From IMG/VR virus record IMGVR_UViG_2681813225_000011: a stretch of DNA of 4,519 nucleotides; one strand, written 5' to 3'. The notes beneath the pieces were generated by a model that was not told the origin of the DNA, did no database searches, and worked only from the letters and a program-made list of their open reading frames with translations. A program made the position numbers and the translations under genes. Position 1 is the first letter of the stretch. The number at the start of each line of letters is the position of its first letter. Shown here one piece after another: positions 3,351-4,034 of this stretch. The stretch comes from a virus. Taxonomy: Duplodnaviria; Heunggongvirae; Uroviricota; Caudoviricetes.

Positions 3351-3836
3351 TTAGTTTTGCTGTTCCATTTTAAACTTGATAGTTTCATACAAAACAATAG
3401 TTGCGCCTGTTTTACATAATTCCCGGCTGTCATACGCGCGAGACCAATAACACAACCAGTTCTCGAGATCTTCTCGAGTATAGGTTTTGCAGGCCAGTCC
3501 CTCTGCCATTTCCACGATTTCATCGCCTGGTGCTGTTAATTCATAGCCATTCAACAACAAGAAGACGTAACCAGCCATCATAGCTGTTCGTTTGTTCGCA
3601 TTAGCAAACGGATGATTCTGAATCAGACTTTCAATCAATACCGATGCCAGTACAAACATGTCATTAGTCTGTTCATACCATCGAACCATGCTGGGACGGG
3701 CCTGAGAAGAACTTAAGTTATCTGGACTCAGAACACCAACGAGCTCATCTGGCGTCTGTAATTCAATTAGGGAACGATTGATTTCAACAAGATCATCAAC
3801 CGTAAGGTAATGCACTCCTTCAACAATCTCAGCCAT
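3351..3836 (-). CDS. Doc-family (Fic-fold) toxin, 161 aa from the ATG at 3836
   Basis: Contains the Doc-type catalytic motif H-x-F-x-N-A-N-K-R (HPFANANKR; P1 Doc has HIFNDANKR). Stop TAA at 3351-3353. The ORF-track start at 3845 is a TTG; the ATG at 3836 is preferred but the start is uncertain by 3 codons. Confidence 0.75.
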   Translation of the reverse strand: MAEIVEGVHYLTVDDLVEINRSLIELQTPDELVGVLSPDNLSSSQARPSMVRWYEQTNDMFVLASVLIESLIQNHPFANANKRTAMMAGYVFLLLNGYELTAPGDEIVEMAEGLACKTYTREDLENWLCYWSRAYDSRELCKTGATIVLYETIKFKMEQQN

Positions 3837-3854
3837 AGAGCACAATACCCATCA

Positions 3855-4034
3855 TTACACTTTTGAAAGTTCTTCCATTGCCTTCTCGTAACGAGAAAAA
3901 CCGAAATCGAAAGCATTTTTCACCTGCTCACGATGAGTGCAATTTTCATCGATAGCCGGGCGCGGAGCTGCCACAACGCTTTTATCGCGAGGGGGAATAG
4001 TCAATCGCGGGTGTTTTTTTAGTGCGTAGCTCAT
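3855..4034 (-). CDS. Putative antitoxin partner of the Doc toxin, 59 aa (MSYALKKHPRLTIPPRDKSVVAAPRPAIDENCTHREQVKNAFDFGFSRYEKAMEELSKV); no recognised family
   Basis: Absent from the ORF track because it is under 60 aa. ATG at 4032-4034 with a G-rich Shine-Dalgarno (AAGGGGGG) about 7 nt upstream; TAA at 3855-3857, 18 nt before the Doc ATG. Upstream-antitoxin then toxin order is typical of Phd/Doc modules. It does not resemble Phd/YefM, RelB, CcdA or VapB as I remember them. Confidence 0.5.
   Translation of the reverse strand: MSYALKKHPRLTIPPRDKSVVAAPRPAIDENCTHREQVKNAFDFGFSRYEKAMEELSKV

Follow-up and report, generated by a model that had tools for sequence, protein, structure and literature searches.

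The window analysed here, a stretch of 4,519 nucleotides (nt) from a virus of the Caudoviricetes (IMG/VR record IMGVR_UViG_2681813225_000011), carries on its minus strand a two-gene cassette, in which a small open reading frame (ORF) of 59 amino acids (aa; 3855-4034) precedes a gene for a 161-aa Doc toxin that starts with ATG (3351-3836). The 59-aa protein is probably the cognate antitoxin of this Doc, and would act through its C-terminal helix. Judged from its sequence, it is most likely a stripped-down relative of the Doc antitoxins, in which the toxin-binding tail is kept and the DNA-binding domain is absent, and its neutralising element is probably the known helix of the "Phd-C" type. What is new is an architecture without a DNA-binding domain, combined with a novel conserved N-terminal segment. 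A preliminary description, made by a model from the letters of the window, had given both ORFs with a gap of 18 nt between them, and its coordinates are all correct on this strand; the spacer (3837-3854, minus strand) reads TGA TGG GTA TTG TGC TCT.

The toxin truly belongs to the Doc family. Its residues 10-129 match TIGR01550 DOC_P1 at 2.1e-36 (124.8 bits, cut-off 38.65), and it also matches the Pfam Fic family PF02661 at 7e-12 (46.5 bits, cut-off 24) and phrog_577, "Doc-like toxin", at 6e-51. RefSeq holds the gene as WP_000818166.1, "type II toxin-antitoxin system death-on-curing family toxin". The segment HPFANANKR, which the preliminary description had read as the catalytic signature of Doc, lies intact at residues 75-83 and fits HxFx(D/N)(A/G)NKR, the Doc catalytic motif as defined in PMC13034048. 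Across a family alignment of 51 relatives, H75, F77, N79, N81 and K82 never vary, and R83 hardly does (at least 90%). The closest solved relative in the PDB is the Doc of Enterococcus faecalis (9vzc_A, 6.6e-13), while P1 Doc is matched at 3e-5. Homology to these proteins points to an EF-Tu kinase that would cause growth arrest. The long C-terminal extension relative to P1 Doc, likewise described before, is real and partly conserved. The protein has 161 aa against 126 in P1 Doc (3k33_A), and about 32 residues lie beyond the C-terminal side of the DOC_P1 model; in the family alignment a conserved WLCxWSRxYDSRxLC (127-141) is followed by a variable hydrophobic tail. This long-Doc subfamily comprises more than 230 protein clusters, from Salmonella, Serratia, Providencia, prophages from Escherichia coli strains that make Shiga toxin (STEC) and Pseudomonas phages. 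An AlphaFold2 monomer model of Doc, built from a shallow alignment, was poor (predicted local distance difference test, pLDDT, 55) and was set aside for fold searching.

The small ORF is a genuine gene under selection, and its synteny with the long-Doc subfamily is strict. Its 41 distinct nucleotide versions give a median ratio of nonsynonymous to synonymous substitution rates of 0.12, with 0.22 as the highest value, and the homologues, from E. coli to Pseudomonas phages, are 55-97% identical (55% between E. coli and Pseudomonas phages). The preliminary description had called the ORF unrecognised, but RefSeq lists it as WP_000119356.1, "hypothetical protein", and it matches PHROG 2208 (phrog_2208, 2.7e-42), a family of unknown function. 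In every one of the 90 intact loci examined it stands directly upstream of Doc, on the same strand and 3-18 nt away, so the synteny named earlier as a check on this ORF is kept throughout these loci. These loci come from genomes of Providencia, Morganella, Rosenbergiella and Kluyvera, from 80 IMG/VR contigs fetched using the Doc alignment, and from two Pseudomonas phages, where the pair adjoins an integrase and the small ORF lies directly upstream of a Doc of 165-168 aa. The sole locus that is not intact, in Salmonella phage SW-37, retains both genes as frameshifted remnants. On its upstream side the pair has flanks of at least 18 unrelated groups, and on its downstream side of at least 21, with no third gene conserved alongside. 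The label "autonomous cassette" was therefore apt, for the pair is a mobile unit and its two genes are the only ones constant among unrelated flanks. Additionally, the pair has the generic layout of a type II module, being two small co-oriented and co-inherited genes with the antitoxin first and a short gap. On one metagenomic contig (L093:1192-1920), a second, larger Fic-domain gene of 242 aa lies 50 nt past the pair.

The wider family of the small protein was collected by an exhaustive profile search of 1.84 billion representatives, which gave 39 matches. Stand-alone proteins of 38-95 aa (most 44-69) account for 37 of them, and in the other two the match is confined to part of a very long protein (1,274 and 2,917 aa); a fusion of the small-protein family to a DNA-binding domain occurs in none of the 39. 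The neighbours of ten divergent members were checked, of which nine are informative, one contig having stopped before any downstream gene. The nine are 37-52% identical to the protein of the window, and in five (P0042, P0054, P0028, P0035 and P0037) a Fic/Doc gene lies downstream.

Comparison with known antitoxins gives little at the level of whole families. The small protein reaches the threshold of no Pfam, NCBIfam or PADLOC model, the known antitoxin models among them, in agreement with the preliminary description, and a Pfam scan of the 37 members gave only scattered single matches. A search of PDB sequences with the small-protein profile returned only a chance match, to ribosomal protein S25 (E = 0.15). 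A sequence relation to Phd/YefM (PF02604, TIGR01552) was rejected, as none of the 37 members matches and hhalign against an alignment of P1 Phd, whose sequence was verified against 3HRY/3K33, gives a probability of 0.9%. Fic antitoxins of the FicA/YhfG type carry the inhibitory motif [S/T]xxxE[G/N], and a direct reading of the 59-aa sequence finds this motif absent.

A link to Doc antitoxins appears at the C-terminus. Out of 18,950 models, the NCBIfam model TIGR02609, "doc_partner, putative addiction module antidote", is weakly matched by five of the 37 members (best E = 0.027). One match, that of P0037, was examined closely; it scores 12.8 bits against a cut-off of 55.9 and covers profile positions 31-74, up to the end of the model. 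The small protein is no full-length doc_partner with the AbrB-like N-domain included, for which that cut-off is missed. A doc_partner alignment was made from seven proteins whose genes precede Doc on Firmicutes plasmids; four of them score above the cut-off (57-93 bits) and three below it. Compared with it by hhalign, the small-protein family scores 21.3 (P = 7.6e-4, probability 25%) over only 22 columns, against 7.5 and 9.6 for reversed profiles and a maximum of 18.0 in 300 column shuffles. Residues 36-57 of the small protein align with residues 55-76 of the 78 of doc_partner, both stopping two residues before the C-terminus. The likeness is visible by eye, as ...SRYEKAMEELSKV here stands against ...NQYDKAFKELVNH, ...SEYDAAFKELVDR and ...KHNELYKELVT in doc_partner, and both families have the signature Y-[DE]-x-A-[FLM]-x-E-L-x-x-x-COOH.

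The doc_partner profile in turn matches EFPhd (9vzc_B) at 1.6e-17, so that the E. faecalis antitoxin crystallised on Doc belongs to this AbrB/MazE-like family. In that complex (PDB 9VZC), residues 52-79 of EFPhd form a bent helix inserted in the concave surface of Doc (PMC13034048). The E. faecalis module has the same Doc catalytic motif as the one here, and its antitoxin gene is also immediately upstream; the antitoxin helix ends in ...Y/H-x-E-L-Y/F-K-E-L-V-x-COOH and aligns with residues 36-57 of the 59-aa protein. Unlike doc_partner and EFPhd, however, the 59-aa protein has no AbrB-like beta-dome DNA-binding domain of about 50 residues, and has a 33-residue unstructured segment with the motif IPxRDK; the Doc here, with its conserved C-terminal extension, has 161 aa against 139 in E. 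faecalis. The earlier claim that the small protein resembles no known antitoxin thus stands for Phd/YefM and is not supported for doc_partner, whose Doc-binding helix it weakly resembles. A different combination is seen beside a Clostridiales relative of Doc (L012:2079-2339), whose partner is weakly Phd/YefM-like (TIGR01552 phd_fam, E 0.045, 13.1 bits where the cut-off is 20.8). This partner ends at its C-terminus in ...NRAAYEVLAK, similar to the ...RYEKAxEELAKV with which the 59-aa family ends, and this suggests a common Doc-binding C-terminal signature across antitoxins with different N-domains.

The predicted structure divides the small protein in two. AlphaFold2, given the 37-sequence alignment, models it at pLDDT 79 as a single helix (34-57) behind an extended or unstructured stretch (1-33). 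The helix, ending ...RYEKAMEELSKV-COOH, is conserved at A41, F42, F46, R48, Y49 and L56 and in the C-terminus ...LSKV, and the N-terminal segment is conserved at I13, P14, R16, D17 and K18, the IPxRDK motif, to an equal degree and with no known counterpart. A DNA-binding domain was sought and none was found, as AlphaFold2 gives no fold before the helix and no helix-turn-helix, ribbon-helix-helix, AbrB or YefM profile is matched above threshold by any of the 37 members scanned. The N-terminus was also considered as a ribbon-helix-helix or AbrB remnant, and neither the model nor the profiles support this.

These features might be taken to mean, as the preliminary description had proposed, that the 59-aa protein represents a wholly new family of antitoxins; its mechanism would then be unrelated to Phd or doc_partner, for example plugging of the active site by the N-terminal segment or induced degradation. 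In favour of such a family, no model reaches threshold and no PDB sequence is matched, the function of PHROG 2208 is unknown, P1 Phd is not similar, and the IPxRDK segment is conserved with no known counterpart. We regard it as very unlikely, since the alignment of the C-terminal helix with the Doc-binding helix of doc_partner runs from end to end and scores above all controls, the five members picked TIGR02609 independently, and the C-terminal signature is common to both families. The designation as a new family is accordingly not retained.

The favoured reading, a cognate antitoxin acting through its helix, is in line with what has been established for Doc modules elsewhere. P1 Phd-Doc (PDB 3K33, 3DD7; Phd/YefM fold, PF02604) is also a prophage-borne two-gene module with a Doc kinase, in which Phd neutralises by a C-terminal helical segment (52-73) that is disordered when free; unlike P1 Phd, the 59-aa protein has no YefM-type N-domain. 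In our own pattern comparison against PMC9207808, the spacing of the Salmonella Phd hot spots F56, M60, H63, L67, L70 and the C-terminus at +17 matches that of F42, F46, Y49, M53, L56 and V59 here. The Salmonella Phd 52-73 peptide (Phd-C) alone binds Doc at 73 pM and stops EF-Tu phosphorylation (PMC9207808), and SUMO-Phd-C is by itself enough to neutralise a Doc in vivo (PMC10440598), so a helix-only antitoxin is mechanistically sufficient. In PanA_Phd-C:Doc of Corynebacterium doosanense (NetFlax, PMC10440598), the Phd-C element is modular and sufficient without an accessory domain. By description, the 59-aa protein resembles such a natural Phd-C element with a short N-terminal appendage, although PanA_Phd-C joins the element to a Panacea domain and here it is essentially alone. 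A parallel in size is PaaA2-ParE2 of E. coli O157:H7, from a prophage region of enterohaemorrhagic E. coli, whose antitoxin has about 60 aa, lacks a DNA-binding domain, is largely disordered and only neutralises. It differs in its ParE toxin and in its third gene, the regulator PaaR2, whereas the pair here has no conserved third gene. PaaA2-ParE2 is listed among the validated systems in PMC3141249, where Doc is described as pairing with several antitoxin superfamilies, as well as with unclassified partners assigned by guilt by association. A mazE-doc composite is known (PMC1626090), as are neutralisation-only antitoxins (PMC10440598).

Several observations weigh against the antitoxin reading. 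No similarity to P1 Phd is detectable by hhalign, and the likeness to TIGR02609 is weak, with an HHalign probability of 25% and 12.8 bits for P0037 where 55.9 are needed; the part that is alike is a short amphipathic helix, which could be convergence. The usual autoregulation lacks an explanation when there is no DNA-binding domain. Moreover, four of the nine informative divergent members (P0033, P0046, P0048 and P0050) have no Doc downstream, and homologues without Doc in four contexts (P0033/P0034, P0046, P0048, P0050) mean that the family is not exclusively a Doc partner. P0033 is found at L097:2501-2653 and L098:1098-1250, and the other Doc-less copies at L094:1036-1194, L096:2100-2249 and L103:1501-1689. 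The P0033 copy overlaps the end of a DUF1187 gene on an enterobacterial prophage-like contig and has an unrelated 261-aa ORF downstream; P0050 overlaps a gene that reads, from its sequence, as SLOG-like; and another Doc-less homologue sits after a 149-aa protein without a Pfam match and before an unidentified ORF. No solo copy of the P0033 type was found in E. coli genomes or in the phage collection. The Doc-less homologues may be orphan antitoxins, anti-Doc decoys or proteins with a second function.

Convincing homologues in these Doc-less settings (after DUF1187, before the SLOG-like gene, after the 149-aa protein), together with the lack of a DNA-binding domain, would also fit a small protein that is no antitoxin at all, being only the operon-mate of a Doc that is otherwise kept harmless or is not toxic to the host, and having some other phage function as a regulator, adaptor or anti-defence protein. 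This is quite improbable in our view. A linkage of 90 in 90 at 3-18 nt, through many flanking contexts in which only these two genes travel together, is hard to reconcile with it, as are the gene order, sizes and spacing of a type II module and the relation of the C-terminal helix to a crystallographically defined Doc-binding helix; the solo copies are explicable as orphan antitoxins.

If the 59-aa protein is indeed the antitoxin, a mechanism can be proposed. The mobile cassette, a moron of a lambdoid prophage that sits between hokD and the DUF1367/YbcO/Q-like genes, would be a type II module of two genes. Doc, a Fic-fold kinase by homology, would arrest translation by phosphorylating EF-Tu, and the antitoxin would be intrinsically disordered when alone. 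Tentatively, its N-terminal IPxRDK motif may clamp the subfamily-specific extension of Doc (WSRxYDSR). Among seven divergent pairs, both motifs are intact in the window, L002, L003 and L099 and both are degraded in L093, L100 and L101, and this joint behaviour weakly hints at mutual contact; the covariation covers only these seven pairs and about three independent events, which counts against the reading. A further step would be to see here a bipartite class of Doc antitoxins, in which a Phd-C-like helix blocks the toxin and the IPxRDK segment locks onto a co-evolving extension that only this Doc subfamily has. Without a DNA-binding domain, such a class would be controlled purely post-translationally or by host factors, and the solo phage copies would be anti-Doc decoys for counter-defence. 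We consider this extended scheme unlikely as a whole.

Expression of the module would probably come from a weak promoter of its own, from hokD read-through, or from both, followed by coupled translation and ended by a strong terminator. The credible ribosome-binding site noted in the preliminary description is a Shine-Dalgarno-like AAGGGGGG (4041-4048, minus strand), read from the sequence 6 nt before the ATG of the small ORF. The small ORF stops with TAA, followed by TGA, and the Doc ATG comes 18 nt further in the same frame. Given the gap of 3-18 nt in homologous loci, translation of Doc is probably coupled or re-initiated. Upstream, a comparison of 19 representative loci identified TGGTATTAG (4121-4129, minus strand), an extended -10-like candidate promoter, as the only element common to several lineages (TGGTATTAa/g). 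A scan for the sigma-70 consensus upstream of the small ORF found no promoter and did not pick up TGGTATTAG. The candidate operator region (4080-4115, minus strand) contains the palindrome GCTAA-caaca-TTAGC (4115-4101; GCTAA-N5-TTAGC with 5-bp arms), an overlapping ATTAG-N5-CTAAT and two TTGACT direct repeats (4100-4095 and 4085-4080). The TTGACT hexamers were considered as -35 boxes and rejected, as no usable -10 lies at 16-18 nt. The operator-like palindrome described before does exist, but the enrichment of such repeats in the 211-nt intergenic region is only marginal (6, where shuffles give 2.1 +/- 1.8; p ~0.05), and a single G-rich hairpin accounts for three of the six. Other lineages have their own, different palindromes between the TGGTATTAG-type motif and the ribosome-binding site.

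The strong terminator reported after Doc was found as a Rho-independent one at 3314-3337 (minus strand), in the form GAAAACCCGC-TTCG-GCGGGTTTTT plus a T-run; the scan gives a 10-bp stem and a 4-nt loop, and a 9-bp inverted repeat is perfect. Most other lineages have an analogous terminator after Doc. The hairpin after hokD (4157-4182, minus strand) is degenerate here (AACCTACTTCGGCGGTT), and a related prophage lineage, L016, has it in perfect form (AACCCGCTTCGGCGGGTT), so hokD read-through into the pair seems possible in this copy.

All genes of the window lie on the minus strand, in the order hokD (4246-4401; Pfam HOK_GEF, 1e-23), the 59-aa ORF, Doc, the terminator and a 57-aa phrog_340 ORF, past which come DUF1367 and YbcO, then a DUF1133/Q-like gene and last an ORF6N gene. 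Over bases 3200-4250, a stretch that includes the whole cassette, the window shows 100% identity to prophage DNA from STEC O121 and O103 and from further strains, and 93 of the 5426 complete genomes of E. coli have the pair at a coverage of at least 80%. Strain RM8352 carries an IS3 element about 40 nt upstream of the hokD start (window ~4439; L001 ~9240); the window is without this IS3 and has different sequence beyond, and its first ~200 bases are also unlike RM8352. The window is therefore a related but different prophage copy. The ORF6N gene (762-1178, minus strand), which is antirepressor-like, is a partial pseudogene in RM8352 according to RefSeq. Just upstream of it is a set of RNAs like those of P1/P7-type immunity I, consisting of a C4 antisense RNA (1231-1314, minus strand; Rfam, 71 bits), its a1/b1 targets (1377-1429) and isrK (1340-1416). 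The STnc100 small RNA family gives a full-length Rfam match at 120-310 (minus strand; 135.7 bits, E = 7e-31). A tRNA-like sequence at 397-456 (minus strand) matches the Rfam tRNA model with 37 bits over model positions 7-64 only; RefSeq annotates this location as a tRNA-Met of 71 nt, ARAGORN predicts no tRNA anywhere in the window, and the sequence may be a degenerate or unusual phage tRNA.

What the module does for the prophage can be read in two ways, both compatible with an antitoxin that neutralises Doc. The paradigm, P1 Phd-Doc, is an addiction module ("death on curing"). The module could instead serve mainly in abortive infection or superinfection exclusion, triggered when an infecting phage shuts off the host and the labile antitoxin decays. 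Its place in a prophage moron slot beside hokD, its own terminator and its carriage by temperate phages of Enterobacterales and Pseudomonas would suit such a role, toxin-antitoxin modules are increasingly tied to phage defence (PMC10440598), and the solo antitoxin-like copies in other phages fit counter-defence. PADLOC, however, gives only insignificant Fic-domain matches (E 0.002-0.02), and we hold a primarily defensive role to be rather less likely than not.

No published description of the small-protein family or of the pair was found in the literature searched. The family is uncharacterised and effectively unnamed, and it establishes no new principle; domain swapping and minimal antitoxins being established ideas, what it adds in concept is modest. 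To our knowledge, the catalogue of Doc partners has been limited to Phd/YefM, AbrB-like (doc_partner) and Panacea fusions, and the only neutralisation-only Doc antitoxin until now is the engineered SUMO-Phd-C. A whole Doc subfamily is paired with an unnamed protein of about 59 aa, which annotation pipelines call "hypothetical" or miss, and naming the family would fix many "orphan Doc" annotations. The case raises the question of how a module is regulated when its antitoxin lacks DNA binding. The small protein would be a natural neutralisation-only Doc antitoxin, and would offer a peptide scaffold for Doc inhibition.

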